IMG/VR virus record: IMGVR_UViG_3300020439_000003
Location: 1-64,000 of that record
DNA length: 64,000 nucleotides
DNA from: a virus
Strand: one strand, 5' to 3'
Part shown: piece after piece, positions 4,079 through 42,380 of the stretch
Numbering within the stretch: position 1 is the stretch's first letter
How the letters are laid out: every line of letters begins with the position of its first letter
Notes under the pieces: generated by a model
The model's input: the letters and a program-made list of their open reading frames with translations, nothing else
The model's database searches: none
Told to the model about the DNA's origin: nothing
Position numbers and translations under genes: made by a program

Positions 4079-4306
4079 TCATTCTTCGGTTGTTTCTTCT
4101 TCGTTTGCCTCTGCTACGCCCTCTGGTGTGTGGGGATAGAGATAATCGAGAGTCTCGATTGCTCCGAGAAGTTTAAGTGCGGTTGTTTCGTTTTCCTTGA
4201 TCTTGTTTGCGAGTTCCTTGTTCTGGTTCAGCAGATCTTGATAACGAGTCTTGAAACCATTTAGCAGATCCGATGGGGACTGCTGTTCAGTAACATCAGC
4301 GGTCAT
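4079..4306 (-). CDS. Small acidic coiled-coil hypothetical protein
   Basis: 75 aa, coupled to the upstream gene by an ATGA overlap; heptad-like central region. Confidence 0.75.
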   Translation of the reverse strand: MTADVTEQQSPSDLLNGFKTRYQDLLNQNKELANKIKENETTALKLLGAIETLDYLYPHTPEGVAEANEEETTEE

Positions 4307-4551
4307 TTGTTCTCCTTGATAAAGTCAATCAGTAATTTTTTAATGTCTGACACATCAGATTTTAGTCCATTTACCTCATCTTGTAAAGAGGCAAACTCCT
4401 TCTTCTTCCGTTGTCTTTCATTATACGACTGCATGTATTTAGCATACTCATCTTGGTCCTTATATACGATAGCATTTGATTGCATATCACGATAGAACCC
4501 TTTGTTTTCGTCCCCTTCAACGGGGACGAATTTCTTTCCACTAAACGTCAT
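4303..4551 (-). CDS. Hypothetical protein with C-terminal coiled coil
   Basis: 82 aa, ATGA overlap with the VrlC stop; C-terminal LQDEVNGLKSDVSDIKKLL. Confidence 0.8.
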   Translation of the reverse strand: MTFSGKKFVPVEGDENKGFYRDMQSNAIVYKDQDEYAKYMQSYNERQRKKKEFASLQDEVNGLKSDVSDIKKLLIDFIKENK

Positions 4552-16961: not shown

Positions 16962-16969
16962 TATTTATG
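16962..16969 (-). promoter_or_regulatory. Late promoter CATAAATA overlapping the upstream stop codon
   Basis: TAAATA core about 23 nt before the ATG at 16939. Confidence 0.65.
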
Positions 16970-18572
16970 TTGCGTCAAAAGACACAGTGGTGGAGTCAAG
17001 AGTAGATTCGGTAGAATCGAACGAATCTGCGCTACCACCAGAGAATCCAGTGACAGTCAAAGTCGCAATTTCAGTTTGTAGTGGGGAGTTAGTTGCAGGG
17101 GTTGCACCAACAGGTCCACTAATTTCGCAACGGAATTTATACCCTGTCATATAAGACAGAGCAGTAAACGCATACGAATTGCTGGTTGCACCAGTCAGAA
17201 CTGCAAAGGAGAAACCACCATCAGTAGATCTGTACCATTGATATCGTTTGGGTCCATCTTCGGGACTGATTGCAGCGGTAACCGTAAAGGTAACCAACTG
17301 TCCACTTCCAATCGTGGCGTTCTGTGGTTGCAGAGCGATCTGAATCGTTGCAGGGATAACAGTTCCGCCGCCACCGCCAGGAGGTGGTGGTGGGGGTGCA
17401 GCACCATTGTTTGCTGGTTGATCAAGAGTCTCACGAGAAGTAAGACCAACCATGTATGGGAACATAGGAACCAGGTTCTGCTCACTATCTAATTCAGTAG
17501 ATAAGAAGTAAGCATATGTGCCATTTGGATATTCAGGAGTAACACAAAAACGTCCATTATGGTAGTCGAGGTTACCTAGACCCTCAGAATACTCCCAGTC
17601 CTGCATCAGAGCGCCTGCTGGGGGGTTCTGCTGGGACGATCCATAGTCTGGTCTACCTGCCGCTTCTTCTGACTTAATACGATAAGAAGTAGTTGCTAAA
17701 CCAATCTCACTATTATTGTTCCAAGGATCACTATAAAAGTAAGGTCCATATACGGGGAATCCATCAAAGGCAATACCAACAAGTTTGGAATGACCATCAG
17801 GATGTCTTAGGTTGTCACCGTTATACTGAGAAGAACCATAGTAGTCATTGTAAGTTGACATGATGGCATTATCTTTCCAGCATTCTAGGAACTCAGTATC
17901 GTGATAATGATACTGCCCAGTTACTTCTGGATGTCCACCACAATTATCTTCACCAAAATCTACTGGTGAATTGGGGAAGTGCGCGTTCCAGTTGAATCCT
18001 GTTGGTGGGTTGCCTCCACTTCCAGCCGATGGATTGAAGAAGACAACACCATTAGCAGCAATACCGATAGCTCCAAGCGGAGTTGCCACTCTACCGTTTC
18101 TCTGGTCATAATAGTTGTAAGTTCCTGAATGTGCTTCTCTCGTGTATTCCACGATGAGTTGCAAGTATGTACTACTAGCACGCCAGAATTCACCAGCAGT
18201 TGCAGTTTGTGCAGTACCTTTGTATATAAAGACTTGCTTCTTTTCGTCTGCTGTACCAGCATCAAACACGAAAAGAATTCTATCGCCAACACGGATAGAA
18301 CCAGTTGTCTCTGTACCTAGAAGACCATTATCCTCTACGCTCAGAGGGATCTCAATAATATATCCATTCTGTGTGAAGGTATTACTGTCGAATGCTCTGG
18401 TAACACCAAACGTTCCGCCTCTAAAATAAAAATCATGGTCAAAGTCCTGCTCAGTAACCGCATTAGGGTTATCAGCATTAGGAAACGTACCATAGGCGAC
18501 GGGATTGGGTAAACCATTCGCCGAAACGTCTATGATACGGGTGCCTGCGTTATAAGTAGCGGTTCCTGCCAT
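16965..18572 (-). CDS. YHYH-domain virion protein with Ig-like C-terminal domain
   Basis: Contains GGHPEVTGQYHYH, GIAFDGFPVYGPY and LDYHNGRFCVTPEYPNGTYAYF. A Pro/Gly linker precedes an Ig-like QPQNATIGSGQLVTFTV...YQWYRS domain. Confidence 0.8.
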   Translation of the reverse strand: MAGTATYNAGTRIIDVSANGLPNPVAYGTFPNADNPNAVTEQDFDHDFYFRGGTFGVTRAFDSNTFTQNGYIIEIPLSVEDNGLLGTETTGSIRVGDRILFVFDAGTADEKKQVFIYKGTAQTATAGEFWRASSTYLQLIVEYTREAHSGTYNYYDQRNGRVATPLGAIGIAANGVVFFNPSAGSGGNPPTGFNWNAHFPNSPVDFGEDNCGGHPEVTGQYHYHDTEFLECWKDNAIMSTYNDYYGSSQYNGDNLRHPDGHSKLVGIAFDGFPVYGPYFYSDPWNNNSEIGLATTSYRIKSEEAAGRPDYGSSQQNPPAGALMQDWEYSEGLGNLDYHNGRFCVTPEYPNGTYAYFLSTELDSEQNLVPMFPYMVGLTSRETLDQPANNGAAPPPPPPGGGGGTVIPATIQIALQPQNATIGSGQLVTFTVTAAISPEDGPKRYQWYRSTDGGFSFAVLTGATSNSYAFTALSYMTGYKFRCEISGPVGATPATNSPLQTEIATLTVTGFSGGSADSFDSTESTLDSTTVSFDAT

Positions 18573-18584
18573 TGACTTTTTAGT

Positions 18585-18592
18585 TATTTATT
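18585..18592 (-). promoter_or_regulatory. Late promoter AATAAATA overlapping the gp7 stop
   Basis: TAAATA core about 13 nt before the ATG at 18572. Confidence 0.55.
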
Positions 18593-21500
18593 GGAAGATC
18601 TGAGTAGGTGTGAATCCACTGATGATAGTGGCACCTGTCTGAACTGTGAGAATCACGGAGTTGGAGTAAGTAGGTTGAGCACCAGCAGCAGTGATTGCTA
18701 CACGGAACTCATCACCATCATCTGCCTGTACGGCAGCGTTAGAAGAGTAAACTGCATTTGTCTGACCTGTGATGTTGACCCAGTTAGTTTCACCATACTG
18801 CTTGCGCTGCCACTGATAGTTCAGTGCAGTGGTTCCGACAGATCCGTCCTCGCTCACGATGAACGAAGCGTCAACGGTGAAGGATGCAGTCTGACCTTGG
18901 TTCACAGTCACGTTAGTGGGTTGTGCGTTGATCAGGATGTAACCAGGTACGATCACGATTGGGTTACCGTCAGCGTCAGTACCTTCACCTGCATAGGTGT
19001 CGAAACCGCCGTTAACATTACCGCCCTCAGGTGCTACGAAGTCATCGGGGACAGTTGTCTCAACTTCAACCACAGGTGCTTCATAACCAATACCAGGGTT
19101 CTTAACCACGATGGAAGAGATTCCCATCAGAGCGCGAACGCGACCGTCGAAACCAGTAGAGGAGATCACGTCCACGTTCGGGCGTGAGGTGTAACCGTTA
19201 CCAGGTGCAGTAATCTGCGCCTTAGTAATTTCACCAGTTTTGATGGTGGCAAGAGCAGCAGCATTGCGACCCTTAACGGTGCCTGTGTACTCGAAGGTAA
19301 TCAAGGAGTTGGAAGACTCAATCAGAGCAACCTCACGAGGATCGCCCTCACCTTCGATTTGCAGGATGTCACCAGCCTCGATCGGAGGTACGACAGTTGC
19401 CGCGATCACGTCAGCGTCAGAACCGATGTAGGAGAAGGCAACGAATGTAGATCCTGCGCGAGGAATCTCAGCGAAGATGATTCTAGAACCAACCAGGTTG
19501 TAACCAACACCAGGTTCCTGAATCACACCATTAAGCGAGACGATGATGTTGTTCTCAGGCAAGATAGTGTTGGACGACACACCTTCCGTCAGAGTCAAGG
19601 AGTAGAAACCACCCTGATACTTCAAGTTGAAGGACGAGCGCAAGGAGTCAAACTCGAAACTGATGTCATCAAGTTGTCTCAGTTTACCCACGTAGTAACC
19701 AATGAATTCGGATCCGATCGTAGGAGGTTCAGTGAACTGAATCTGGTCGGAGAACGCGGTGTAGGCGTAGGTTGCACCAGGAGGTTGCAGCACACCATTG
19801 ACGAACACGAGCAGGTGACCAGCGGGATCTGGGAAGTATGCTTCACCGTTGTTGACGGTGAGTTTGAAGGAAGTTGCAGTGCCATCAAATCCTCGGAAGA
19901 ATCTATCGCAACGACCCAGGAGCGACTTCGCTTGCGTTACACCTGCCTGCCAACCATAGTCGGAGATGATCGACATGTTGCTAGGCCAATCACCCACGGC
20001 ATCTTCCAACCAGATGCGACCAGTGGTGCCGCTGATTGCCTTACCTGCGACCCTACCGTAAGAGGTGTAAGAGGTCTCAGTGACGGAGGAGATGTCTGCA
20101 CGGAAGATTGGGAAGTTGCTAAGGTTCTCAAACTTACCGATAGAACCATTTGCTGCCAGTTGAGGATCGACAGTTGTGGATCCATCTGCTGCCTGTCCGT
20201 ACGGACGCAGGTTCGCGAGCCATACGTTGTGAATGCTGTTGTCAGGATCGTAGTTATACTCAGTGACGATAGCAGTCCAACCAGGTTGTGCGGGGATGGT
20301 GCCTTGGAGCAGGTAAACCAGGTCGCCTTTGTTGAAGTCTCCCAGGAATCCTTGGTCTCTTATGACATTTGTGATCTGACACTGGATTGTCTTAGTCGCA
20401 TGTACGAACTGATTAAGTTCAAGATTCTTGAACCCAGTAGTAGTGATATCAGCGATGTCAAGAATAACGTCAGTGACAGAACCGTAGATAATGTCGCCAT
20501 CAACAAAATCATCTTGCAAGGACTCAATGTCGATCGTGATACGACCACCCGTGTTGCCCACGAGAGCACCAGCAGAGTTTTCATAGAGTGCGATGTCTGC
20601 CTCAGCGCCATTGCCCTTGTTGAAGATCATCTCACCCTGAGCAAATGCACCGCGATCAATGTTGATCAACATGCGCTCAGTCAGAGCACCTTGGACGGTT
20701 GCAGTGACAGCAGAGTCTACACCCACGAGGTCATCGCCAGCGTTAATTATGCCAGTGATATTCTCGATGTAGCAGTTACCTTCGTCAGTGTTATCACCCG
20801 AGAGGACAGAGGTCTGAACAATGAAACCGTAGTTAGAAGGATTGCCATCAACGTTGACTCTCTCGCCATTTGTGAAGCGACCCGAGGCAGATACGAGATT
20901 CGCCTTCTTGTACAGTTTGATGATCTCTGCTTCATTATTTCTAGTTCTGATAACGTCACCACGGCAGTTGGAGCTAGTACCAACAACCACGTCAGCGAGG
21001 TTGAAACCACCACTGATAGGCGTATCAATATCACGAGTACCATATGTAGTGGTCTCACGATTGATGCCAGAACGTACATCAACTTGGAATCTCTGCTGAC
21101 CACCAGTTGAGAGGTCAACATCAAAGTCGCTGTAACGTGCGTCGTGACGAATCTCGCGTGCAATCTCGAAGTATTGAGGAGTTGCGTTCAACACATAGAA
21201 CCAAGACTGACCTTGGAGTCCACGCTCGATGTCAGCCGAAGCGGGCACGTAGGTAAGAACATCACCACGAGAGTAGAAGTTCGGGCGAGTAATCTTGACT
21301 CTGTTCTCTCTTCTCTCGAAACCAACTTCAACGGTAGGAGTGTTAAGGACCAGTTCAGGATCAGTGTTCCAGTCAGTACCCTCATCATAGATGTTTTGCA
21401 GATTCTGAGCGTGAGTCGAGTTGACCCAGATCAGACTATTGTTGGTAGGAGGTGTAGAGCGCGTGAGTGCGAAATTGATTGGATTAGTAGAAGCATCAAT

Positions 21501-24500
21501 TCTAAACTCAGTGGACTCTTGCTCATACTCGAAGCGATACTCAATAGCATCCATCAGAGTATCATCCAGATAACGGAAGTATTCGTTATTTGTACCCCAC
21601 TCAGCAGTGCTGTTCTGATCGTAGAGGATACGCTTGCAAGCCTCAGAGATGCGTAGCAGATAGAAGATCAAGTGCTGTCTTACAACACCCTCGTATGCAA
21701 TGAATTGACCTTCACCATCGAACCAGGTGTTTGCCAGTTTCATAGAACCAGCGTTGCCGCCAGTGTTAAGGTCATAGATGATTGCATCCACCACTACCTG
21801 AGCGAAGGACTCAGGGGCAGCAGTGCCAGGATATTGAGTTGTTACTTCATCAAATGACTTGGCAACGATAGCGTGCTTGTTGAACACCAGGCGACGTGCA
21901 GTTGCACGTTCGGAGAAGGATCCACCACCAAGGGTTTCACTCATCAGATCGAACAGAGTATCAGCAGCAGAGATCACGTTGTAGCAAGTGTACAACTGAT
22001 AGTCAGTATTGCTGTTGTAAGGCGTAGTTCTAGTAACAGTGCTGAGATGAGTCGGCGTAGGTGATCCAGATGCTGCCTTAGCGACAGTATCGATCACGAG
22101 GTCAAACAGAGTCTCGATAGCAGAGGCAGTCTGCTCACAAGTGCTGTTCCAACCACCAGTTGCACCCGTGTCATAAGTAACAGACACGTCACGATGAACC
22201 ATGTCGTTGCTGTACTTGATTGGCCAGATGTTCGGCAGAGACTTGGTGATAGTTCCGTCAGTGATGCTTGCAGGAGTTGCAAGTGTATCATTGACGATAT
22301 CCATCAGAGTTCTCATGGTGGATCTTACGTCATTACATACACCGAAGGTTCCATCGGGAGCACCATCAGCAGTGATGGTGTACTGAGGATCACTGTATGG
22401 GAAGTAATCAAGATCACCATAGAACTTCTGATTATAAGAATGACCACCTTGCTTGGTGATTGTGTCATTCTGCATTACATCAACAGCAAGATCGAACGCC
22501 TTGTTAAGGATCCAAGTGGTCTCAGTTACCTGCGAGGTGACGTGAGCAACGGCAGCAGACTGGACATAAAGTTCAGCAGCATGGAAGACTCTGTTGTTAC
22601 CACCGTATTTCAGGTTGAATACCAATGCACTCAGAATGTCAGTAACGTCATGAACACAATCGATGCTACCAGCAGTAGTAACAGCGTTGTCTTCTGCACG
22701 TACGAACGTATGGGGATATTGCTCACCAGCGGGAGAAGCACCAACGTTAACCGTGATCGTGGTGCCAGTTACACCAGTGATCGCGATAGAATCTTCATAA
22801 TAAGGATCGGTGGTGCGAGGATAGGCGTGCTCAGTAGCATTGCCATCCTTAGTGCAGGTGAACACCAAAGAATGAGGTTGGATATAGATCTGGTTACCAG
22901 CAACCAAGGAGTGAGATCCAATGGTCAGTTCCAACACACCCGAAGCAGGAGTGTAGGTAGCGGCAGTAGGAGTGAAGTTCACACCACCAGTAGTACCACC
23001 GTTGATATTCAGTGAAGGATATTGCTGTTGACCCAGGTAAACTGCTTCCTCAGCAATGAATCGGATGTTTCTATCAATGATGTTAGCAGCATCAATGTAG
23101 CGGTCACGTACAGCATTCTGTTCGTAAGAGCTGGTCTCCACTTCGTCGAAGGATTCACCACCCAGGTCACCACCAGGAGTGCCGTCGCCACCATCAAGTT
23201 CTCTGTAAATATAGAGGTTGTCACGTCCGAATCCATTTCTCATGGTCATGATGCACATTTCCTGTGCAAACTTCATAACCCATTGTGATGCCTCTTCTTC
23301 ACCTTCAACGTGGAGGAGAGTATTATCTTCTGAATTCAGATAGAGTGCAGCAGCATCCCAGGTCTTAGAGTTACCACCCAGACGCATGTCGTGGACGATT
23401 GATTCGATAATATCAACCACATCATCAACACAGTTCTGACGACCGCCAGGAACCTTGAAGTTGATGAACTTAGACATGTCGTTCATGGTATGAACTGCTT
23501 CCCAAGCGATCACATACTTGTTACGCTCGATCATGTCAGCAGCATCCATGAGGCGATCATGGTTAGGACCACTACGAGTCTGATCAGGTGCCTGAGGATC
23601 AATAGTGATCGTGGTGTCACGATACACCTCACGGGTAGTCCAGACTGCAACGTAGTAATCGTCTTGGAATCTACCATCAATACCCAAACCAGCAGCAGTA
23701 GTACCGTTGGTTAGCAGAGTATTGTTGATTGCGTGCTTAACGAGTTTCTTGGTGAACTCAAAGGCGTCCAACATGGCGCTGAGTTCACCTTCAACATGAA
23801 GAATCTGATTGTCTTGGTTGATGTATTGATCCAGGACATATTGGGTAGAAGAGTTACCACCAGTCAGCAGGTCAGTGATGACAGCAGGCAAGATGAACTT
23901 CTTGATGTCTCTGAGGCAATATGGTTCACCATAACCAGGCATCTGCAAGAAGTCAAAACTACGGATTTCTCCGAGAGGTCCTTGAATATCAGCAGCATAC
24001 TTGTCTTGGATATATCCAACAACTTCCTCAGCAATGAAATCGCGGTTTTTCCAGATAGCATCGCCACCATCACGGAATCTATCGCCAGTTGGGCAAAGGA
24101 TGTCAATGATAGTATCAGCAAGAGAACTAATCTCGTTAGTTACCTGGGAAGATGCAGGAGAAGCAAAGTTGTTAGGAATACGAAGGATATCAGTGTACTT
24201 GGCAGGAACAGTGTCGCCATTCTCATCAACCATGGTTCCATAGTTGACCAGATCACTGCTAGTGGTAGTGATTACGTAGTTCATAATCTCTGCCAGTTCG
24301 TTCCATGCGTAGATGGATTGCAGCAGTTCATTACCAACGTAGTTCAGACCACCAGACTTGGTGAGATATCCTCTACCAGAGATCACGCTGTTATAGTTAC
24401 CACCGTAACGAATATCAGCAATGATTGCTTTTAGGATGTACTCTTTGGTGTCACGAATACACTTGTTAGTTCCTTGTTCACTGGTTTCAGTATCGCCAGG

Positions 24501-27500
24501 GATAACGAAGTCAGGATACTTCGCTGCCATCTTACCAACAGCAGTTTCTGAGATCCAATCGAGGTTGAGTTCAAGCATGTCGGCACACTTTCTGTGCTCG
24601 TCACGCGAGAGATCAATATCCTCAATGATGATTTCCTTAGTGGCGTAGTTGACCTTCTTAGCAGTTGCAGCAGAGTTAGTCTGACCAGTGTAAGTGGCAT
24701 ATGCCTCCTCAGTGCTGACAATGATCGACTGCTCCATATCCATACCAAACAGAATATTCTGGTTGTTAGTTGGATAGGTTGTAGTGGGAGTAAAGGTGCC
24801 AGCGTACAGAGACTCGTTGTGAATGATGAAGTTATCAACATAACCTTGGAAGGAGTTAGTGCCATCCCAACCAGCCATCATTCTGAATGGACGCTCAACA
24901 TAGGTGTTAGTGTCAGAGTAGTCACCACCAACCTGTGTACCATTAACAAATACCTTAGTGATACCAGTGGTTCTGGTAACTGCAACGTGAGACCATTGAT
25001 CCTGTGCCATGTTATGAGCACCAGAGATCTGATCAAGTCCGTTGATCCAATACTTAATGGAGTTGTTCTCCAAGTAAAGGACAGGAGATTGAGTCAGAGT
25101 GGCACTCTGAGTTCTAGTATCCCAGAGATACTTGATGCCAGACTGAGGATTGGTAGTAGGACGCAACCACATTTCAATGGTGAAGTCCGTAGTACCAAAC
25201 TTAGTCACATTAGACAGACTATGAGACAGTCCAGTATGAGTCTGGAAGTGTAGTGATTGAGTTCCTGCCTTCTTCTGCAATCCAGTCAGGGTAATCGTAC
25301 CATTAGCAGTCAACTTGGAATTGGTAATGGTCTCTCTGTCAGTGAAGGTGCCAGTAACAGCATTAGTGAACAACCACTTCAAACCAGAGTTAGTTCCCTT
25401 CGCTTCAAAGGATGCGCCAGAGGATAGACCTCTGATGGTGTCACCAGGAATGAAGAATCCATTACCACCACGATCCTTATAGGCAAGCTTGAATACACGG
25501 AGGTTCTCGTTCTCGTTGTATGTACCATCAGTGATAGGACTGAGAGCATTGATAGCATTCAAGTTACCAGCACCAACTGCACCAGCGGCGATTTCAACCA
25601 AGGTATGAATGCCTGCCTGTACGTCAGCACAGTTCTGAATGCTTTCGTTACCACCAGAAGAGTAATTAGGATCGTAATATGCTGCCTCAGTACCACCACC
25701 TTGGAAGATAGCATTGTCAACAGCACTGATGAAGGTGTGGGTATAACCACCACCAGTCGATACAGCGTTTGCGCTAGCAGATACGAAGGTATGAGGATAC
25801 TGCTGACCAGTTGGAGATGCACCAACATTTACAGTAATCGTGGTAGCAGTAACAGCAGAGATTGACAGATACTGACCATTAGCAGGGTCAGATGCACGAG
25901 GATATTGATGGTTAGAACCATTGCTATCCTGAGTACAAGTGAAAGTCAAACTTCCCTGTGCGATAGTGATGTTATCGCCAATGCTCAGCGAGTGAGAACC
26001 GATGGTGAGTTCCAACGAACCCGTTGCGGGGTTGTAGTTTGCGCCAGTAGGAGTGAACTGAACCAGAGGAGATGCACCAACATTAACATCAATGGTAGTA
26101 GCAGTCGTAGCAGTGATGTTTAGAGCAGTGTTGAATGCAGGGTCACCAGTACGAGGATAATCGTGGAAGGTAGCACCACCATCAGAGGTGCAGGTGAATC
26201 TCATCGAGTAAGGTCTGATCGTTACAGAATCAGAAGTTGAGAGACTGTGAGTGCCGATACTGATCGACATAACACCCGTAGAAGGAGTGTAAGTAGCAGC
26301 AGTCGGAGTGAATTGTGCAAGAGTTGTACCAGCAGCACCCAGATAAGGACCTTGATAAGTAGAAGGATCCTTCAACATGTAACCCAGTTCTGGGGTTCTA
26401 GTATTGACCTGTACATAGAGCAGGTTGTTGATAGCACGACGTGCCATCTCGCCCGCCTTTCTAAATGCAGTCAGGGACTCAGCAAGTTCTCCAACCAGAC
26501 CGTTACTAATAGGTGAACCATTAGTGAAATACTTCTTAGCAAATTCGACGATGTTGTAATTACCATCATCAGTAATGTCAGCAGACAAAGCATCGACCAT
26601 CAGACCGATGTCACGACGGCACTTAACTTCGTTAGCGGTGTATTGAGTTGGGATTACCTCGTCGAGGAGGTCAGCAAGGGAACCAGCAAGCAGGATGACA
26701 GAGATGTTATCGCAAAGTGTTTGCAGCGCAGATTGTACGTCAGAGCAGTTATTGGTTCCATAGTTCTGACTGTTAGAACCAGCAGTGCCGTAGTTATTAC
26801 CAGGAGAAGGATCAGCAGTGATACCAGTTCCAGTAGAACCACCAGTGGTTCTCTCGTTGTAGAAGATGTAAGTAACACCATCAACAACCTCAGATCCATT
26901 CAGGTCATTTCTGAGTGCTTGACGCATCAGTTCAGTTGCCTTATCGAATGCAAACTCAGTAGCAGCTGCTTCGTTGTTTACATACAGGAAGTTAAGACCA
27001 TCAGCACTGAAATACTTCTGTGCAAGTTTTCTGGTATATACTGTACCGCCACTGTAAACATCGAATGACAGAGCATCAATGTAGTAACCAATGTCGCGCT
27101 TGCACTTGTCAGCAGAAGGAACTGTCAGAGCAGGATACTCAGCAGTCATCAGAGCGTAAGACTTCGCTTGAATATACTCCTTATTCTTCTGAATCAGACG
27201 ATACGCATCAGCATATCTGGACCAGGCGTCGGTCGCGTTGTCGCCAGGATAGTAGAATCCAGGATGTTCAACAGCAATCTCAGCGTTAGCAAAGTCAACG
27301 ATCTCATCCTTGTTCAGGGAGATCATACGACCAGCATCTTTCCATCTGTTCTTGGAGTCGGTAACAGTGTTGCCATACTCGAAGGTGATAGAACGCAGAT
27401 TGTCACCAGCAGCAAGAGTGCCACCAGTTAGATTCTCGTACTCAATCTCGGTAGATCTAACTTCTTCAAAGTCAAGGAAGTCAGCATTGATTCTTTGATC

Positions 27501-30500
27501 AGCGTCATCAATTAGAGTAGGAGTAATCGTAGTCTTAGAGATATCATCCAGGATGACGTTAGCGTTAGTAAGAGAGATAAGACGCTCAAATACCAGACCG
27601 AAGAAGGTTGAACCTTTGTTAATGATCAACTGATCAACAACATCACCCAATCTAACTTCACCAGAGACAACCTCAGTCATGTTGTCGAGGATTCTACTAC
27701 CAGTGGTAGTATCAACGGTATATCTTTGGATAGTATCACCATCTTGGAAATCTGCCACAGATCCCTTCAAGTAATACAGGATCGGAGGAGATGCCTCTTG
27801 ATCAACTCTTACAACTTCACCACTTGCAGTGCCACCAGGTCCTTGGATCTTGTCACCCTCAGAGAAGGAATTCCAACCTGCTTCACCACCAACAGGACGT
27901 ACCAAGTTGATGTTAACAATAGGATCTCTGTAAGGAGAAGTGCTTGTGATTCTTGCAGCGATGTTGGAACTTGCAGAATAGATGATATCTTGCAGACCAA
28001 TATCATAGATACCAGTCTCAAATTCAGCAGTACCAGAAGTCTTAGAAAGAACCAGTTTATCATCGATATTTCCATCCAAATCTTGGTTGGTTTCTTCAAT
28101 GATTGCTTTGTCGCCATCGAGATTAGTAACAGTCTCACCAAACTCAAAGATGGTCTTATAGTTGACGCTATCAACATTCAGAATGTCACCACCATATTGG
28201 AGACCAAAGAATGTGACTGCTTCACCTCTTTCAAAGTAACCATTTGCCATGTCAGTGACATCAATGGTGTAATCAGTTGGGTTGACAGTGAACACAGTTG
28301 CAGTTGCACCAGTGGTCTGACCAGTGACTCTTACACCACCAAGTGCCTGCTGAGTGAATGTGCCACCAACGTTTTCAAGATATAGTTTTGTAATAGAATC
28401 GTCGATGCTTCCAATCAGGGCGCTGAATCCAGTTCTACCAACGTCAATACGCTCGTTAAGATCAAAAGGTCCACCTTGGATATCTACAACGTCGATGCTA
28501 GTAGCACCAGTTGCAACAACTCTTGCTCTTGCCTCAGATGTGAAACCGTTAACAGTATCACCCAGTTCAGGGAAGATACCACCGATGGTATTCAAGTTGA
28601 GTCGAGTGATCGGCATAATGTCGAACTCAACGTTTCTGTAAACAACCTTAGAGTCGGGTCTAGGAGGTTCAGCAAAGACGATGTTGTTACCAACGATTTG
28701 GAAAGATTCGCCAGGTGCTTGGATTACACCATTCAGGGTGACAACCAACTGGTTATCCTTAACGATAAGGTTCTCACCTTCAACTCGGAGTGGGAACTGC
28801 TTAGTAGAACCATCAAACTGAGCAGAGATATCGTCAATCTTCTTAACGATAGAAGTTAGAATTTCCTCAGAGTTAGTCAGTCTCTTCTTACGGAAGAGAA
28901 CTTCGGAGTTATTGAAGGTTGAGTAGATCGGTTGAGCAGCACCGAAGGAGGTGATCTGGTTAACGTTGGTGTACTCATTGATGTTCACCTGCTTAGTGAA
29001 ACCAGCAACAACCTTACGTCCAGAGATATCCTTACCACCAGTCAGTTCAAGCTGACCAAACATGTTGAAACCAGTTGGGTGGTTGTTTTCAAGGATCTGC
29101 TGCTTCCAACGGTTGATAGGAATCTGAGACTTGATAACGTAAGAGAAGTTCTGATAGAAGAAGGAGTCTTGGATCTTCTGAACAATCTCAGAGGGCTTAC
29201 CAACGTCATCGATGAATCTACCAGGAGTCTTGGTTAGAGCATCAATGTTCAGCACACCCTTAGCAATGTTGATGTTATCGATCAGACCAGATGCACGAGA
29301 GATAACACCCTGCACCTTACCACCAACAACAAAGTCACCACGGGGGTTAGTAACTTTAAGGATCTTAGGTTGAATCTGCCAACCTTCATTCTCGGATACA
29401 ATACCGAAGGCACTAGCAAGTTCATAGGATTCACCTTGGAAGAGTTCTTCACCTTCCAGGAAGCGAGAAGTCTCAACGACTGCTTCTGCTTGACCACCGA
29501 ACACCTCGGTGAGCAACACCTGACGACCATCACCCTGAGTCAAGAAGGTAATAAAGTTACCAGACTCAGCATCAACTTGGGTCAGTGCAAAACGGAGTTG
29601 GTCTGCTTCCAGACCATTTACATTACCAGCAATAGCATAGTAGGTCTGAGTAGAAGACAGACTGGTCAAACCAACGCTGCTTGGCTTGGGCAGTACACCA
29701 ACTTCACTACCAATATCATCAGCACGGAACTGAACCTCAGCACCAGTGGTAATACCATGAGGGAAGTTGAACTGCAAATAGTTCAAGTCAAGGTTCACAA
29801 CATAGGTGAACTCAGATTTCAGAGTGACAACTGGTTGTGAAGAGTAACCAGCACCAGGATTCTTGATCAGAATCTCAGACAGTCTGTTGTTCTTAACAAC
29901 TGCTTCTGCCTCAGCACCAGATCCACCACCACCAGTGATGATGACAGAAGGAGCAGAGGTATATCCAGCACCAGGATTAGTGATCTTGATCTGGGAGAGA
30001 ATAGAGGTGTTAAAGAGTTGCAGGTTGATCGGGAATGCAATCTCAGGACGCAGGGTGTAGTCATGGGAGTAACCATAACCAAACTCGTTGTTTTTCAGCG
30101 TCTTGATCTTACCAATCTGTCTACCAGTGAGGAACACAGCAGCACCGCTACCCTCAGCAGGGATAACCACTTCTAGTTCTGCACCAGAACCAGACAATGT
30201 GGGTCCAAGAATACCTTCAATACCATCAACGTCGATACTTGCAGTGGTGTAACCCTTACCAGGATCGGTCAGAGCAACATCAGTAATGGTGCCAGATCCG
30301 ATCTCGTCATCAACCTCAACGGTGATTTGCACAAGACCACCTTCACCATCACCCAGGATAGGAACCTGAGTATAGACACCAGATGCATATTCAGTACCAC
30401 CGTTGCTGATTCTGACCTTTTCGATCTTACGATCAGATGCAATGTCAGATACAACAGGGAGTTTCTTATAGAATCCACCAGGAGAGATCAGTTTAATCGT

Positions 30501-33500
30501 GTTGATAGGACCGATTGCTTTGACCGAAGTGGTGGAGTAGGAAGAGTTAGGACGATCAAACTCATCTTCACCAATTTCTGCATTGGTGAATTCAGGTTCA
30601 TGTAGAAGTTTGAATCTAAACTCAGTATCAGAGATAACTTCGCTGATAGTAAACTTACCATCAAACGGAGTCTTGATCACATCAATGAAGGAGTTGTTAC
30701 CAACAGGAGAATTGGCACCCAGTCTTGATGGGTCAAAGTAGTAAGTGATATTAGTAACCTCACCACCAATGGTAAACTTAACCACAGGTGTCTCAGTTGC
30801 AGAGGCCAAACCAGGAGTACCTTCACGTTCAATAACGTTGAAGGAGTATTCCAGCTTGTACTGGTTATCCTGAGAGAATGACAGATAATAACCGAAGTTA
30901 GAAGAATCACTCATATCAAAAATATAAGAGTGATTTCTAGTCAGCATTAGAGTCGGGTGCTTGGATGCAATCTTAACGCCAGCAATACCGCTAGTATATC
31001 CAGGATCACCACTTGCAGTATCCCGTAATCTGTAAGTGAAGTCTCTGGAAGAGAATACTTCCTGAACGAAGAATGAACCATTGAACTCACCACTGTTGAA
31101 TCCTTGTACAAACAAGATATTGCCAGCAGAATAGTTATGAGGAGTTACAGCAGTTGCATAGATCAGGTCAGATCTACCTTCGCTAGTTCTGATGATGTCC
31201 TTATCAAGAGTAACAGTCAGTTTGATAGTCTTGACAGTAGTAACACCGTTAATATCTGCAATCTTAGCATTGTCTGCATTAGGACCAGCAGTAATACTGC
31301 CACCCAAAGATACTACGTCTCCGATGATGAAATCAGAGTCAGAATAGGTATCAATAATAGTTACTCTATACTCTTCTGGTCTGAAAGGTCTAAACCTTGC
31401 ATAGTCAGAGAGTGGATCATATGTACTAACGTAGGACCAGGTGACATTTCCATCAGAAGCAGTACCAGTGGTGTGTACAGGGACAGTAGCACCACTAATA
31501 CCACCAGTGGTTGCCTGATACTTGTTTCTTCCGTAGTAGACGAAATCATTGATTTGATAAGATCTATTGGTTTCCCACTGATCTACCAAAGGAGTAGGCC
31601 ATGCATAATCAGCAAGATTTACTTGGATGGTTCCAGCAGCACTAATGTAGTTCCAAGTTACAGCACCATCAGTTACGATACCGATCTCATGAGTTGGTGC
31701 AGTAGCACCAGAAGTAGCAGTGTTAGTAGCGGCGTAGATCTTACCGTCGCTGTATACCTGATCATTGACGTTATATGCCTTACCTGTCACCCACTCTGCC
31801 TGAGGACGAGAAACAGTAAAGTCAATCTCTTCAATCAGGTTCTCTTGACCAGTAGAGTTTCTGAATCTATCAGTATTGTTAAAGTTACCAAAGATCTTAC
31901 CGATCTTATACTCAGTACCATAACCTGGGTTGTTGATAGGACCAACAGGAGTCTCTACAATCGTACCGTATGCTTGGGTAACGCCCTGAGCGTTGAATTG
32001 TTGAATAACAGTACCCTTATCAAACTTAACGTCTTGATTGAAGGTGAACTTCTTAACGTTGTCCATCTTAGAGTATGCTGCATCTCTAATGTAGTATTTT
32101 GCAATTACATTAGGAGAAATGAGCAGTCTCTTACCGAGAGGTGAAGGTACAGTGGAAGTTTTAGAGGTGTAAGTATTAACTGTCTCTCCAAAGGTATATG
32201 TACCAAAGTTCAGAGTAGACGTTACATCAGAATAGTCGAGAATTTGCAGACCCGAAGAACCTTCACTCCACACTGTAATGACAGGGTTATTCAGGTTGTT
32301 GATGTTGATTTGAGTTGCTTCACTAAACACAATACCCTGAGAACCATCAATCTGATAATCACCACGCTTACTATGGAGACGATCAAACTTAACCATATCA
32401 AGACCAGCATTCACAGTTTCAATTCTGTAACGCTCAGTAGGAACAGTCAGAGAAGAACCAGTGTAAACGGCACGAGGTTCTACGATGATGTCATCAACCC
32501 AACCAATGAAGGAGGTGTTGGTAGCACCAGAAGTGGCGTTAGACAGAACTGCAAGGTCATCCATTGCAATATCTTCTGTTCTAGTAGCAGTACAAACCTG
32601 TACACCATCGAAGTATGCAGAATAGACATAAGAACCAAGGGTGGGTTCTTCCTTAACAAGAACGATATGATGCCATGCCTCAGATACCATTGTGGTGAAA
32701 TAGGTAGAACCCACAGATACCACAGTAGTGCCACCACCACCCTGAGGGGTGATATCGAGGGTGACTTTACCGAAGTTAGGATCACCAACAGTACCATTGA
32801 TAGAGTAGATAACCTTATCGCCATTGTCGGCAATACAGGTGATCATTTCCATCTTAGGATTGTTGCTAGCATGGGTGCCAATCATCTTAACCCACATGCC
32901 GACAGTCCAGTCGTCATTGTTATCAAGGTCAGTCCAATCCAGACGACCTGCTGCTTGCAGTTTCAGTGAAGCAGAACCAAACTTGTAGATAGTATCATCT
33001 CTGAGGATGTTAGCACCACCAGTTACAGTGACAGCACTCTTCTTCTGCTTGGTTGCATCGAAGTAAGTATCAGCACTATCGTTGAAACGATATACAGCAG
33101 TAGGAACAGACTTCTGGATGTTGAGTGGGACAATAATGTCACCAGAGTTGTCAACTGAGTGTGTAGTGGTAGTAAATCCAAGACCATAGTCAGTGTCACT
33201 ATTGACAGAATCCCAAGCACCACGGATGATGTTGGTCTTGTACTGCATAGTGCCGTTGTACTTGAAGTTAAGTGCAACTACTTGCTGATTGTTATCTTCG
33301 TACTTGATGTGGGTAAGAACATTGACATTACCGAATTCATCAAGGCTAACACCAGCATGATTGATAGATTCAAACGAAATACTAGGAGCAATAATCTTAG
33401 AGAAGAACCACTCAGGAGTGCTGAGGGTAAGTCTGACTTGTTCCAGTGCAATCTTGAAGAATGCAACACCATAGTGCTTGGTGCCATTCCACATATCACA

Positions 33501-36500
33501 TACAAAGAACAAATCGTTGTAGGAATCCAGAACAAACTGAGGTCTTTGTACCTGACCACCAGAGACTGCCAACTTCTTGACATAACTCATTTCAATGTTG
33601 GCACCGTCGTAAACCATCTCACCGAACATGAGATCGTTATTGTCTAGATCAATACCAGCAAAAACGATTTTATTGTTACCAATGTAATGCAACTGGTGCA
33701 TTTGCTCACCTTCGCTGTCAGAAGCGAACTTACGCTTCTCTACAACGTCACCTTGGTTATTGAGCTGCATAACCCAGATGTCATCAGGATCTGGGGAGTT
33801 GGTGTCCGTCCAACCACAAATATAGAGTCTCTGCTCGTCATCGAGGTAAATATCACCTGCATAGTCGCGACGAGTCGCACCAGAGACACCAGCAATCTCT
33901 TTCTGGAATCTGATGACACCTTCGGGGTTATTTGCGTTATCGAGACCAGATTCGTACTTGACAAGCAGAATATCAGGATTGTATCCAGAAGTGCTCTGAG
34001 ATTCGGTTTCACCGAGCACATAGATCAAATGATTGTCCTCAGAAGTCTCGTCGAGGTAAATCTTCTTGAAACGTGCAGTTTTAATACTAGAAGAGGGAAG
34101 AAGACTTCTATCCCAAATCAGACCACCAAGATCGGAGAATTTAGCAAGGAAAGCAGAAGATTCGCCATTTGATTGAGTCAGTTCACCACAAACGTAAGTA
34201 GTACGGTCAGAAGCAGTCTGAACGTCTATGATTTCAAATGTAGAGGCATTAGTGCCACTCTCAACGTATTGGTTGACCCAATAGTAAGTTTTCTTGAATT
34301 GTTGGGGATGAGAAACTCGGATTTGAGGAACATCCTCAATATCGTAGTCAAAACCAGAATTGATGATATCAACACGATCAACTTTACCAGTAGTGGTATC
34401 CAGGATGATATCAAGCTCAACGTCCTGTCCAGAGTCAGTAATGATCTCATATGTCGGAGGAATTGACTCATTGTAACCAACACCGATCTGATCAACACTA
34501 ATTGACTCAATACCAGTCACAACGGACATGTAGAATCGCTTATTGGTGTTATCAGTGATAACTTTCGACGAAACGATAACTTCGTCTTGTGCAATCAGTT
34601 CATGATCATTAGAAGTGGTGATTTTGCCGTATGGCTCATCATCAATGATTTCCTTACGATATGCAGAGATAGTTTGACCAGTAACAGACTCAATTTGAGC
34701 AGAAGCACCAAATCCATCAGTTCCAGTGTTATCGAAGAACAAAGTATCGTTAACCTGATAAGAAACGCCAGGGTTCTCGATAACGAATCCGTCAATCTGT
34801 GCAGACTCGAATTTAGTAGTATTTTCAACTTCAATATCCACTCTGGACTCAGTAGAGACCGTTGGGAAGTAATCATAGATCTGCAATGCCGCTTCTTCGG
34901 TCATTGCTTGCAGAGTAGCAATTTCAAGGGGACTGATGATGCCGTCACCGTCAATATCTTCAATTTCAAAGATAATTACTTCACCTTCACGCTCAGTAAC
35001 GAGTTCATCGGATCTTTGGTTGGGTTGACGGTCAATATCGATGTCAACGTTGGCATAAGGGTCTCTGAAACGAGAAACATCAAGAGGGATGTTTTCTTGG
35101 GTTGCAGATTGACTCAGGTTCCAAGTATCAACAACAGAGTTGAACTGAGGACCAACAATATAAGGGAATACAGGAAGACCAGCGTCAGATTCGTCAATAG
35201 TTACGAAATAAGCGTAAGTACCAGCAGGATAGTCAGGAGTCTTACAGAAACGACCGTTATAGGGGTCTAGGTCGCCTCTCTGGAAGTCATATTCGTAATC
35301 ATTGATGAAAGTACCAGCAGGATAGGTTGCAAGCAGCGGACCATCCGTTCTAGCAGGAGTTGGGTTGGTATCAATGTTATATACGACCTCATCTTTCAAT
35401 TTGTAAGAAGAACGCATTCTTCTAAGACCACTGTTCTGATCAGTCGGGTCAATGTAACCGTAAGGACCATAAATCGGGTTACCATCAAACGCCCAACCAA
35501 TAATTGGAGAGTGTGCCTCGTTTTGACCAACTTCTCGGAAGTTTTGAGTCTGAGGATCAAGAACTACGTTGTCACCAACCACATAACGGAGTTCTTTCGG
35601 GTCGGAGACGTGTGCGTATTCACCACCATATTGGTTATTGAAACCAGTGAACACATAACCACGAGCAACGTCATATTTGGAGTTAAGTTCATATTCAAGG
35701 TTCTTGTTCCACTTGAATACAGTTGCTTCAAAGGTTGCAAGTTGACCAACTGCTTCCAGACGAACAGTAGTGTTACCTTGGGTATATCCAACACCTTTGT
35801 TAGTGATTTGGATAGAAATAACCTTACCTTTGTCTTCACCAAGGGTTCCGATGATAGCAGTTGCCTGAGCACCAAATCCATCACCGTTAATGTACACAGT
35901 AGGAGCAGTGGTATAGGCTTCACCAGAGTTAATGATAGCGATCGATACAATACGACCGTTAATCACAATAGGTTGTGCCAGAGCACCTTCACCAGAGTTC
36001 AGTTTGATCTCAGGAGTAGAAGTGTATCCAGTTCCAGCAGAAGTCAGTGAAACACCAGAAATAGGACCACGAACTTGTGCAGTAGCAAGAGCACCAGTGC
36101 CGCCACCACCAGTAATAGAGATAGTAGGTTGAGAAGTATAACCAGTACCAGCATTCTCTACCAGAATACGAGTTACACGACCATTAGTCACAACTGCCTG
36201 AGCAGTTGCACCAGAACCACCACCACCAACGATAGAGATCAGAGGTTGAGCAGTATACCCAGAACCCTGATCGGTAACATCGATAGAAAACAGTGAACCG
36301 TTAACAGTAACGCTAGCAGCAGCACCAGTACCACCGCCACCAGAAATTTGAAGTGCAGGCTTGTTACCAGCATCATAATCGATACCATTATTGGTGATAG
36401 CGATTGCAGTCAAAGGACCAAAGGTCACATAGTCCTTAGACTTGTAAGACCAGGCAGCAACACCGTTTACCCAAGAACCAACGGGGTTATTAGGTTGAAT

Positions 36501-39500
36501 AGTAGTTCTAGTAGAAACCGTAGATACAGTTCTAGGGAATCTAAGCAGTTTACGCTGGTTACCAGGAATTAGAGCAGAACCTTGGAAAGGACCGATCTTA
36601 TAGTTGGGTAGACCAGAGGCAGCAACGTAAACGTAGTTATTATTGAAGAAAGTATTCTGAATGTTTGAAGTGAACAGAGATACTACTTCGTTAATAGAGT
36701 TAATAGTAGACTTACCTCTATTCAGGTCAACAGACAAGAGAATGTTACCCTGAGGAGTGATCTGAGTCGGTACAGGGATAGCATAAGTGAAGGTAAAGTC
36801 GTCAAGACGAGAAGTTACTTCGTAAGTGCCATTGTAGATAGCAGGGTTAGCACCATAAATGGTAACTTTATCTTCTACAAGCAATCCGTGCGGGTTATCA
36901 CAAACGACGGTAGCAGTTTGGTTATTCGATCCCCCAGGAGTAATGCTTGTAACCTTGATGAGTTTCTTAACGTTATACAACCAGGATTGAAGGCGTTCAT
37001 CAGTGTCAGTGCCACCCAAAGCAGCCACATTAAGCTTATCGCCTGGTAGATAGTAAGAACCAGTGTCTTCAAGAACGGTAGTACCTGCTTCTGCAATACC
37101 GAGAACACGAAGTTTGACTTCGGTATCAGTTCCTTTGTTAACCCAGACAAAAATGTCCGAGTGAATCGTCGTGCCAGGGTCCCAGTCCTCAACTACACCG
37201 TTTTTAGAACGAGTACACTCAATAAACTGGTTCAGTGATTTTTCTTTGTACTGAACAACTTCACTATCATCAATAATGATCGTACCGTTCTTCTCTGGCC
37301 ACCCAATAGTTGAGTCAACGGTAATTATGTTACCATCGGTGGACAAAGGTTCAACAAGAGTCGTTTTATAAGGAATCTTGAAGCTTCCGCTCAGAGTTTC
37401 CTCTGAAATTGCTAATTCGTAAATAGTATCTGTACCTTCGATGATCGAAATTACGTTTTCGATCAAAACAGAGGCATTTTTGATGTTTTGGTCAACAGGA
37501 TCCTCAATTTGGATCAACTGTGCGTTTGGCAGATTGATAGGATCGCCAGAAATCAGTTCTGCACGCAGAATAGTGTCAACAACCCAAGATGCTGCCGAAG
37601 GAGTGACCAGTTCGTCTCTGGGGTAGTAAACATCAACTTCTTCACCGAACAGAATCTTAAATAGGTACTGTGCAGCAGTTTTCGTACCCTTTGAGATGTA
37701 GAAATCCTTGATCGTCTTAATAACTTGCACAGGATTGACCTGGGCATAGTCAATGTTGATCGTAGGCATGTATTGATCACGGAATTTGTCAAATACACGT
37801 CTAATGATCTGAGCGTCTAGGTTATGAACAACAGATCCAACAGTATGGTTGGTTTGAGCAAGTTGCTCTTCCTTAGCATAGACCTGATTGCCAAAATTAT
37901 CAAATTGGACAACATCAGATACACCACGGGCACAACCACGCAGTGAAGAAGGTTCGTAGTCTTGACCAGCAGACCTAATAAGGCAACCAGTCACCTCACC
38001 GAATCCAACATCACAAGATGCCTGTGCAGCAAGTGGTTCAGCGATGTAAACCTTAGGAGGATTCTCAGTAGAATACCCTTCACCGAAGTTAGTGATGTTA
38101 ATGTCAGTAATTTCACCGTTAAAGATGGTTGCTGCTGCCATTGCACCAGTACCACCAATAGATTCACCCAGAGGACCCTTACGATCGTCTACGATGTATA
38201 CAGAAGGAGCATCGGTATAACCAGAACCACCTGTCAGCAGGTTGATATTGGTAACACTACCGTTTGCGACAGTAACATCAAGAACCTGAGCACCAACGGG
38301 TTGTACAACTCTTGCTCTGGGTGCTGTTTGATAACCACGACCTCTATTAGTGATAGTTACAGATACAACTTGCCCGTCAGGTGACACAGAGCAAGTTGCT
38401 TCGGCATCAATACCATCTTCGGGAGCAGGATCGATGTAGATAGTAGGAGGATTGCTATAACCAAGACCATATTTGGTTACAGTGATAGATCCATCAACCA
38501 GACGACCCTCAGAATCGATTGTAGGGTCACTGCACTCAGCACCACCAGGGTTGATGAAGGTAATTGCAGGAATAAAGTCGTAACCAGAACCAGAGTTGGT
38601 GATCTCAATACCAGAGACTTGTCCTGTCGTATCATCAACAGTAATTTTAGCAGCAGCACGAGAACCATTGATCAGATCGCCAGGTTCAGTGATACGAACA
38701 ACAGGAGGGTTGTATGCAGTATAACCCTGACCACCGTTGATCAGTTTAACGTTCTTAATACCGTTGACCAAAGACCTGGCCGCGGCACCAGTTCCCTTTC
38801 CAGTAGAAGAGAAGATGGATACCTTAGGTGCAAAGTTCAGTCTATAACCACTACCACCCTTCTTGATAGTAATTGCTTCAATTTCACCATTAGCGCCAAC
38901 ACGAGTTACTGCCTCAGCACCCAATCCAACAGAAGGAGACACATACTCGATAGAACGAATATGGAATGTATCTTGTCCAGAGATGTTAACAAAGAATTTG
39001 ATTCTAGTGTTGTTATCAGTCAACACATAATCATCAAACGGGCGTTGCAGCACACCGTTACGGTTGATGATCAGACCAATTTCAGCAATAGGAGCATAAG
39101 GGAGGTTATCATACTGAACCACCATCGAATCTCCACCAATGAGATTTTCGAGAGGGGGATGAACCAGTTCTTTAATGACAGAATCAGCAAAACCGATGTA
39201 GTAAAGAATCTGAGTCAGTTCTACCTGGTCATTACCAGTTCTAGCACGAGGTGCAGTGGTAAAGATAATCTGAGAGCCAGTAATAGTATAGTCAACATCA
39301 GGAATCAACAGATCACCATATACAGTAACTGCAAGGTGTGCTGCTGAGACAGGTGAGACAGGAGTACCAAGGAATTTAAGATCAAAGGTAGTTCTACTAC
39401 CATCGAAGTCAGTCCATGGAGATTCTAGTGCTTGTCTCTTCTTATTAAATTCTTGTAGGGAGATACCTGGGGTCAGGATTACGTCAGGACCACGAACCGT

Positions 39501-41966: not shown

Positions 41967-42380
41967 TTACGTTCTCTCTAAGAGGAATTCAACAGTTTGA
42001 GTTTGCGGTTGACCAACGATTGCATATTCAATCGCTACGTCAATACTGTATTCATCATCAGAGAGGTTCACGTCAATGTTTTCGACCTCAACACGAGGTT
42101 CTAAACGTTGTATGGTATTACTTATCTCATCTCGCAGGTCTTCTGCGGTGAAAACGTCAAAGGGTTCAAATAATAGTCCTTTGACTCTTGATCCAATGTC
42201 AGGTTGATAGGGGCGTTCACCAAAAACCGTCAGTATCAGGTTTCTGATCGACTGCTTGATAGCATTTTCATTCTTCACCGTCGAGAAGTCTTCGGTATTA
42301 GGGTTTGCTTCAAATGAAACCGCTAGATCCTTAAAACCTCGGGAGAAAAACTTTTCTGATCGAAACCTGTACGACGGCAT
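41967..42380 (-). CDS. gp25: Baseplate wedge subunit gp25
   Basis: Contains KNENAIKQSIRNLILTVFGERPYQPDIGS...EPRV. Confidence 0.92.
   Translation of the reverse strand: MPSYRFRSEKFFSRGFKDLAVSFEANPNTEDFSTVKNENAIKQSIRNLILTVFGERPYQPDIGSRVKGLLFEPFDVFTAEDLRDEISNTIQRLEPRVEVENIDVNLSDDEYSIDVAIEYAIVGQPQTQTVEFLLERT

Follow-up and report, generated by a model that had tools for sequence, protein, structure and literature searches.

Phycobiliprotein-fold domains with conserved cysteine helices in a giant baseplate protein of T4-like cyanomyoviruses: candidate sites for bilin attachment

The window analyzed here is a stretch of 64,000 nucleotides (positions 1 to 64,000) from the virus record IMGVR_UViG_3300020439_000003, a 109.5-kb fragment with an estimated completeness of 59%. 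A single open reading frame (ORF) of 7078 amino acids (aa), at 18588-39824 on the minus strand, holds all five copies of a cysteine-helix motif that the original prediction had likened to the Cys153/155 site of phycobiliprotein beta subunits and proposed as a substrate of phage CpeT, a T-type bilin lyase. The ORF belongs to a baseplate module with the gene order gp25 (41967-42380), gp6 (39830-41965) and giant ORF, followed by a YHYH protein and a gp9/10-like protein, and in S-WAM1, S-SZBM1 and P-RSM6 the equivalent position is taken by orthologues of 6600-8600 aa that bear the annotation virion structural protein or baseplate wedge initiator. Because of this gene order and these orthologues, we assign the window to a T4-like cyanomyovirus (Kyanoviridae), in which the giant ORF is the gp7-position baseplate protein. 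Its N-terminus matches the Baseplate_wedge family PF23786 weakly, at 26.7 bits for a cut-off of 27. The principal features are as follows.

18588..39824, minus strand: giant ORF, 7078 aa, at the gp7 position of the baseplate module, after gp25 and gp6
21600..27377, minus strand: phycobiliprotein-like region, residues ~4150-6075, with seven domains (A-G), beta-sandwich inserts and Laminin_G_3
26682..26747, minus strand: Cys helix 1 (C4360), helix H of domain A by model alignment
25566..25631, minus strand: Cys helix 2 (C4732), putative helix H of domain B, judging by element order
22275..22337, minus strand: Cys helix 3 (C5830), helix H of domain F by model alignment
22065..22139, minus strand: Cys helix 4 (C5896), H-type, probably closing domain E (helix-E Cys5465)
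21927..21986, minus strand: Cys helix 5 (C5947), H-type, probably closing domain D (helix-E Cys5303)

Exact string matching bears out the five motif copies at residues 4360, 4732, 5830, 5896 and 5947 (codons 26745-26747, 25629-25631, 22335-22337, 22137-22139 and 21984-21986, in the same order), each string occurring once in the translation. The pattern C-x-[DQN]-[VT]-x-[SA]-x3-TL yields 5 matches, compared with a mean of 0.0006 in shuffled sequences (n=5000) and an analytic expectation of 0.0009, in an ORF of which Cys makes up 0.5% (36 residues).

To gauge conservation, we used a homologue set of 99 loci from IMG/VR and GenBank, in which the helix has the consensus [NT]-C-A-D-V-Q-S-A-I-D-T-L-F-D-I-V-x-D-T-L. 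The five motif cysteines are retained in all homologues, down to ~35-50% local identity, and the Cys column is occupied by C in 174 of 177 distinct helices, the remaining 3 being gaps. The layout of two helices followed by three or so is likewise retained in every locus long enough to judge. A profile search of 1.84 billion proteins extended the family to 775 clusters, some with up to 34 repeats; the best 148 of these 775 clusters have C at this column in 175 of 177 distinct helices and, at the helix-E position described below, in 670 of ~780 motifs. Two further groups of cysteines are retained, namely six that belong to a K-C-x-R-D...GGN motif and three located within beta-sandwich inserts (4545, 4630 and 5657), while the non-motif cysteines 4371, 5080, 5244, 5524 and 6063 drift among homologues. 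Since the lone cysteine at the start of the helix is invariant while other cysteines drift, some form of thiol chemistry is to be suspected at this position. A role as metal ligands or redox-sensitive thiols would suit conserved, probably surface-exposed baseplate cysteines; each site, however, consists of one Cys, for which the helix offers no conserved His or Cys as a partner, no metal-binding family was matched, and we regard this explanation as highly improbable.

The surrounding region is related to phycobiliproteins at the level of profiles. Summed over repeats, the Pfam profile PF00502 scores 41.8 bits on residues 4001-7078 (gathering cut-off 22.2), a score built from profile positions ~28-101, corresponding to helices B to E; the strongest single repeat falls slightly below the cut-off. 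Domain A was compared by hhalign with references from real cpcBA loci, which had been fetched with a 60-residue CpcB probe, yielding E 5e-5 against the CpcB alignment and E 7e-6 against CpcA. In the CpcB comparison, Cys4241 falls on Cys82 and Asp4206 on beta Asp39; the local alignment ends after helix E, and the pairing of Cys4360 with Cys153 appears only in a forced global alignment.

Structural predictions extend this relationship to the C-terminal helix. AlphaFold models were built with alignments of 30-32 homologues for residues 4150-4780 (m0f5de2c649eb; mean pLDDT 79, pTM 0.83) and 5560-6110 (mae5c8c20bd63; mean pLDDT 68), and in these predicted models, as opposed to solved structures, we find the globin-like elements of the fold, that is, helices A/B, E, F, G and H. 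Residues 46-230 of m0f5de2c649eb superpose on residues 26-184 of C-phycoerythrin beta (5aqd_M) with Z 15.4 and an rmsd of 3.0 A over 148 aligned residues (VIA-align), the next matches being allophycocyanin, ApcE and phycoerythrin alpha, with haem globin sensors scoring lower (Z <=10). Residues 4-290 of mae5c8c20bd63 align with residues 20-177 of beta chains at Z 13-15, with an rmsd of 2.2-3.5 A and 136-149 aligned residues; the top 50 VIA-align rows for this model are all phycobiliproteins or derivatives, nearly all of them beta chains, and Foldseek assigns a probability of 1.0 to its phycobiliprotein matches. For the 631-residue model of residues 4150-4780, Foldseek returned no phycobiliprotein among its top 50, and it was the wide VIA-align search that did. 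Since the first chain residues covered by the structural alignments are 17-33, the start of the N-terminal X-Y hairpin is unmatched, no separate hairpin search having been made.

In both models the aligned ranges extend as far as the solved chains do at their C-terminal end, the last element of the model being the Cys helix (model residues 212-231 and 272-290). The cysteine lies 19 residues ahead of the last aligned residue in both cases (211/230 for helix 1, 271/290 for helix 3), with range end 230 pairing with chain residue 184 and range end 290 with 172, 177 and 184. The same spacing of 19 residues is found in the fetched CpcB genes, where Cys153 lies in a chain of 172 residues, and, judging by chain length, for Cys158 of 177 and Cys165 of 184 in phycoerythrin beta. 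This register, available for helices 1 and 3, was derived from the ends of the aligned ranges and not from residue-by-residue pairs. Because the alignments reach the C-termini of the solved chains and the cysteine keeps the 19-residue spacing, helices 1 and 3 are, on these models, very probably helix H of phycobiliprotein-fold domains, with their cysteines equivalent to beta-155. Helices 2, 4 and 5 are probably helix H closing nested domains; helix 2 forms a helix at 584-603 (pLDDT ~78-85) in the model of residues 4150-4780.

The second class of conserved cysteines lies on helix E, in the position of Cys84, and the domains and motifs concerned are arranged as follows.

26685..27242, minus strand: domain A, residues 4195-4380, complete phycobiliprotein fold with helix E Cys4241 (KCKRD) and helix H Cys4360
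27042..27104, minus strand: helix E motif of domain A, KC(4241)KRD...GGT, equivalent of Cys84/Arg86/Asp87, with R and D invariant
26556..26621, minus strand: helix E motif of domain B, KC(4402)RRD...DGN
24396..24461, minus strand: helix E motif of domain C, KC(5122)IRD...GGN, best single PF00502 match (21.8 bits, profile positions 33-84)
24096..24152, minus strand: helix H of domain C, with Ser5225 at the Cys position (SSQVTNEISSLAD...)
23853..23918, minus strand: helix E motif of domain D, YC(5303)LRD...GGN
23370..23432, minus strand: helix E motif of domain E, NC(5465)VDD...GGN
22275..23138, minus strand: domain F, residues 5563-5850, with helices A/B, E (Cys5723), F, G and H (Cys5830) by model alignment
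22596..22658, minus strand: helix E motif of domain F, DC(5723)VHD...GGN
25900-26300 and 22700-23000, minus strand: beta-sandwich inserts, residues ~4500-4700 and 5607-5715

Along the chain, the cysteines of helix E and helix H follow the order E4241, H4360, E4402, H4732 in the first group and E5122, E5303, E5465, E5723, H5830, H5896, H5947 in the second, followed separately by a Cys-less helix E at 6011. In the second group, this order fits a nested arrangement, D[E[F...H3]H4]H5, from which we infer the packing of these domains. In the first group, domain B would consist of helices E, F and G (4397-4465), two beta-sandwich inserts and then helix 2, and the order fits an insertion of domain A into the B-E loop of domain B, with residues 4156-4186 (Pfam positions 28-69) as helix B of the latter. 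A relative, locus L017, has one extra helix E and one extra trailing helix H, consistent with nesting. If nesting holds, five of the seven domains would each pair one helix-E Cys with one helix-H Cys. Domain G has neither cysteine, and domain C lacks that of helix H, its place being taken by Ser in 48 of 56 homologues and by Cys in none; the fold thus forms without need for Cys at this position. The inserts of ~85 aa (FTPTAATYTP...FTCT...YPR...VNVGASP) sit in loops of the phycobiliprotein-like domains, including the B-E loop of domain F. Model residues 437-542 are similar in fold to two known structures (Z ~8), the first catalytic cysteine half-domain of ubiquitin-activating E1 enzymes and a domain of the phage phi92 endosialidase.

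Residues equivalent to those that contact the two bilins in beta subunits (Arg86, Asp87 and, for the beta-155 bilin, Asp39) are conserved in most domains. On helix E, domains A-D carry C-x-R-D, domain E has C-V-D-D and domain F has C-V-H-D; the R and D are invariant across homologues in domains A, B and C. The equivalent of beta Asp39, a contact residue of the beta-155 bilin in C-phycocyanin structures, never varies in domain A, domain E or the helix assigned to B, and predominates in domains C, D and F. The G-H loop ahead of the cysteine also carries a conserved stretch, GITADPSPG..YGT.GSN. Because the equivalents of Arg86, Asp87 and Asp39 are invariant or nearly so in most domains, a bilin site is favored at these positions.

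The same matched numbers of cysteines, one on helix E and one on helix H in five domains, together with the insert cysteines 4545, 4630 and 5657, could instead serve disulfides or other covalent cross-links between domains, subunits or baseplate neighbors, formed after lysis in oxygenated sea water and stiffening the baseplate with no pigment involved. Virions do reside in an oxidizing medium, and the model gives no placement for helices 4 and 5, both points in favor of cross-linking. Positions 84 and 155 are, however, far apart in the phycobiliprotein fold, on which domains A and F superpose at an rmsd of 2.2-3.5 A; in C-phycocyanin, the beta-84 and beta-155 chromophores are ~35 A apart. A disulfide between the two cysteine classes is disfavored because of this distance. 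Cross-linking would also leave unexplained the conserved C-x-R-D and Asp39 equivalents, which are bilin contacts in phycobiliproteins, as well as the co-occurrence with cpeT presented below, and we consider it unlikely.

A search for cpeT, suggested as a check in the original prediction, revealed that the genome does encode a CpeT-family protein of 163 aa (PF06206, 39.2 bits), located outside the window at G000:C1:81349-81840 on the minus strand. T-type lyases are specific for the beta-155-type cysteine (PMC10452541). To ascertain whether the enzyme and the domains occur together, we surveyed 24 complete cyanomyovirus genomes, calling cpeT by PF06206 and the domains by our own profile or PF00502. 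Both were present in 20 of the 24 genomes (this phage, S-WAM1, S-SZBM1, P-RSM6, P-TIM40, S-PM2, P-HM1, S-SM1, Syn1, Syn9, Syn33, S-ShM2, P-SSM7, P-SSM4, S-BM1, P-RSM1, S-SCSM1, S-CAM7, S-SSM4 and S-SSM6b), both were absent in 4 (P-SSM2, S-SM2, S-SSM7 and S-CRM01), and none had one without the other. Two of these calls are weak, namely the domain of S-CAM7 (E 1e-4) and the cpeT of S-SSM4 (22.9 bits summed, in one 155-aa frame), and S-SSM6b was counted with S-SSM4 by its identical portal protein, without a relaxed search of its own. S-SSM4 had been a candidate for a genome with domains and no cpeT, and was rejected as such when a relaxed search yielded a diverged cpeT. Furthermore, both S-PM2 and Syn1 have a giant gene encoding these domains with cpeT 1-1.5 kb upstream of it, and H-type Cys helices are present in those S-PM2 and Syn1 ORFs and in a 3681-aa ORF of P-HM1.

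P-HM1 is the phage from which CpeT was reportedly crystallized by Gasper et al. 2017; its host, Prochlorococcus MED4, is said in the same work to have a degenerate phycoerythrin lacking the T-type site and a genome lacking cpeT.

In this genome cpeT overlaps the end of a gene for a 2OG-Fe(II) oxygenase (G000:C1:81349-82429; L001:1462-2542), a pairing also annotated in S-SZBM1, S-WAM1 and S-SSM5, and in S-PM2 an oxygenase gene stands between cpeT and a giant 'short tail fiber' gene. RefSeq lists 16 tRNA features inside that coding sequence (CDS) of S-PM2 (NC_006820 165928-177267) under a common locus tag, which looks like an annotation error. In S-SCSM1 (NC_070962 172300-178716), cpeT is followed by an annotated ferrochelatase, two tRNAs and a virion tail fiber gene, and the domain matches lie elsewhere, at 36412-37623. 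A search of genome contigs with phage CpeT as the query returned no match.

Taken together, these data suggest covalent bilin attachment at the conserved cysteines as the most likely function, at what we judge to be somewhat less than an even chance. The helix-H Cys opens its helix, very probably in helices 1 and 3 and probably in the others, where beta-phycocyanin and beta-phycoerythrin carry Cys153/158/165, the T-type thioether site. While the virion is assembled in the infected cell, a bilin made by host or phage would be joined covalently to the domains; for the helix-H cysteines the lyase would be the CpeT that the phage itself encodes; and the baseplate would exit the cell carrying pigment. 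The proposal that phage CpeT could be the lyase for the helix-H cysteines is favored because cpeT is in the genome, its presence or absence agrees with that of the domains in 24 of 24 genomes, and it adjoins the giant gene in S-PM2 and Syn1.

Several results weigh against bilin attachment. At the level of sequence, the original prediction is upheld in that the beta-subunit C-terminal helix it quoted is real, as seen in the fetched CpcB genes with Cys at 153 of 172; the resemblance of the phage helices to the Cys153/155 site stands by fold and position for helices 1 and 3, and fails by helix sequence, where no match exceeds chance. A profile of 76 diverse Cys helices matched no phycobiliprotein in the PDB at E <= 10. 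Among CpcB sequences, 17 of 32 are matched best at Cys153 by a position matrix of helix H, and for CpcA the preferred site is where helix H starts in 28 of 32; the scores on CpcB do not rise above those of shuffles (p 0.18 with the Cys column, 0.87 without), and those on CpcA are likewise non-significant. The likeness to the beta-subunit helix H is therefore real in fold and position and is not demonstrable from 13 residues. The Asp39 equivalent is variable in domain F, and the model containing helices 4 and 5, which omits domains D and E, is of low confidence at these two helices. The co-occurrence with cpeT, too, comprises only two or three independent concordant changes. In a portal-protein tree, P-SSM2, S-SM2 and S-SSM7 fall in a five-member clade with S-SCSM1 and S-CAM7, each of which has both, and the tree rejects a grouping of the first three as one clade (AU p 0.0015); published work places S-CRM01 in a separate cluster (PMC10665884). 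With only 2-3 independent contrasts, the sign test is not significant (p 0.5). P-SSM2 and S-SSM7 carry pebS and ho1 (PMC3037559) and have neither cpeT nor the domains, and phage bilin synthesis is therefore not tied to these domains; pebS and ho1 were not found in the 109.5-kb fragment (59% complete). Finally, host beta subunits are an ordinary alternative substrate of CpeT in Synechococcus, and we know of no report of pigmented cyanophage particles.

The profile of Cys helices had its best PDB match in 9ufe chain FA, 'OCM6' (723 aa; TCATIQAALETL, E 0.1; matched stretch at residues 263-281, TCATIQAALETLPNNVIDA); were this a phage or giant-virus protein, its solved structure might reveal the role of the helix.

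Some of these observations would also be expected if the domains were pigment-free scaffold or receptor-binding modules derived from a captured host phycobiliprotein gene, with the cysteines kept for some purpose other than bilins, such as folding, assembly or chaperone contact, and phage CpeT acting solely on host phycoerythrin or phycocyanin. Such an origin agrees with a helix H that has no significant sequence similarity to that of beta subunits, with G-H loops so lengthened that they hold whole inserted domains, with the absence of both cysteines from domain G and of the helix-H Cys from domain C, and with the existence of host CpeT substrates in Synechococcus. The invariance of a lone helix-capping Cys in roughly 350 distinct helices, in proteins whose other cysteines drift, is nevertheless hard to account for without thiol chemistry, and the Ser of domain C argues against a requirement of the fold for Cys. 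Moreover, cpeT occurs without the domains in none of the 24 genomes, and in MED4, the host of P-HM1, the T-type site and cpeT are reportedly both missing. We consider the pigment-free explanation doubtful.

Bilin attachment, if it occurs, might relate to the control of adsorption by light. Liu et al. 2019 reported dark adsorption for P-SSM2 and none for P-HM1 and P-HM2, and considered light-sensitive host receptors or phage tail fibers as possible causes (PMC6628666). Citing Jia et al. 2010, the same authors describe S-PM2 adsorption as light-dependent and independent of host photosynthesis (PMC6628666). The light-dependent phages S-PM2, P-HM1 and P-HM2 have cpeT and the domains, and P-SSM2 has neither, four phages amounting to an anecdote and yet giving the hypothesis a concrete form. 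A pigmented baseplate might act as a photoreceptor through which light gates adsorption or baseplate triggering, an idea that we rate as improbable. Such a photoreceptor may carry up to 11 covalent bilins per gp7-like chain (six on helix E and five on helix H), and a virion would, by analogy with T4 gp7, hold six gp7-like chains. Were this photoreceptor real, it would explain at the molecular level why S-PM2, P-HM1 and P-HM2 depend on light to adsorb, while also fitting the dark adsorption of P-SSM2, and phage cpeT would exist for loading the virion's own beta-155-type sites.

Irrespective of the response to light, a virion substrate would bear on the bilin genes of cyanophages (cpeT, pebS, pcyA and ho1), whose purpose has since 2005-2010 been termed unresolved or a mystery, Sullivan et al. 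2010 describing the role of phage cpeT as unresolved and that of pebS and pcyA as a mystery (PMC3037559). The puzzle is greatest in phages of Prochlorococcus hosts, which lack phycobilisomes, and a phage protein with conserved beta-155-type and Cys84-type sites would be the virus's own bilin substrate. If pigment is attached, this would be, to our knowledge, the first virion with a built-in chromophore, and it would offer a candidate mechanism for light-dependent adsorption, which influences how infection follows the daily cycle in the most abundant phototrophs of the sea (PMC6628666).

A protein search of the phage collection with this region of the giant ORF returned 362 records, and a comparison of its DNA with the same collection found no match. 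Three metagenomic members, P0128, P0130 and P0131 (4400-6400 aa), have 23-34 domain-profile matches and 12-17 helix-E Cys motifs; a search with the helix model found no H-type Cys helix in them, and they may form a branch of the family using the Cys84-type site alone. The YHYH domain PF14240 is found twice at the locus, once inside the giant ORF at residues 1397-1544 (101 bits) and once in the product of the gene immediately downstream, a protein of 535 aa (16965-18572, minus strand; 128 bits). PF00502 is precomputed in most homologues, and databases thus already mark the phycobiliprotein family there; our literature search found no paper on PF00502 domains in cyanophage baseplate proteins. 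What is new here is the beta-155 register, the finding that the helix-H Cys is invariant throughout the family, the co-occurrence and adjacency of cpeT and the match with adsorption phenotypes.

Compared with T4 gp7, the giant ORF shares its gene place after gp25 and gp6, and differs in being about seven times longer and in having phycobiliprotein-like, YHYH and Laminin_G domains, none of which T4 gp7 contains. With phycobiliprotein beta subunits (CpcB, CpeB and those of cryptophytes; PF00502), the phage domains have in common the fold from helices A/B to H (Z ~15), the helix-E C-x-R-D, a Cys opening helix H 19 residues before the domain end, a helix-B Asp aligned with beta Asp39 and a 'GIT' stretch in the G-H loop. 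In contrast to beta subunits, which are free proteins of 17-20 kDa, the phage domains sit inside a 7078-aa baseplate protein, leave the start of the X-Y hairpin used for alpha-beta pairing unmatched, hold long conserved stretches or whole beta-sandwich domains in their G-H and B-E loops, and have a helix H whose sequence is not significantly similar. ApcE offers a parallel in layout, as it also carries a loop-interrupted phycobiliprotein-fold domain within a large multidomain polypeptide (structural match Z 11.6-12.8); there is, however, just one domain of this kind in ApcE, its bilin is bound autocatalytically through another Cys, and the protein resides in the phycobilisome core instead of a virion. 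The CpcT/CpeT lyases, lastly, are the family of the 163-aa PF06206 protein of this genome, which would take part in the proposed system as the enzyme and not as the substrate.

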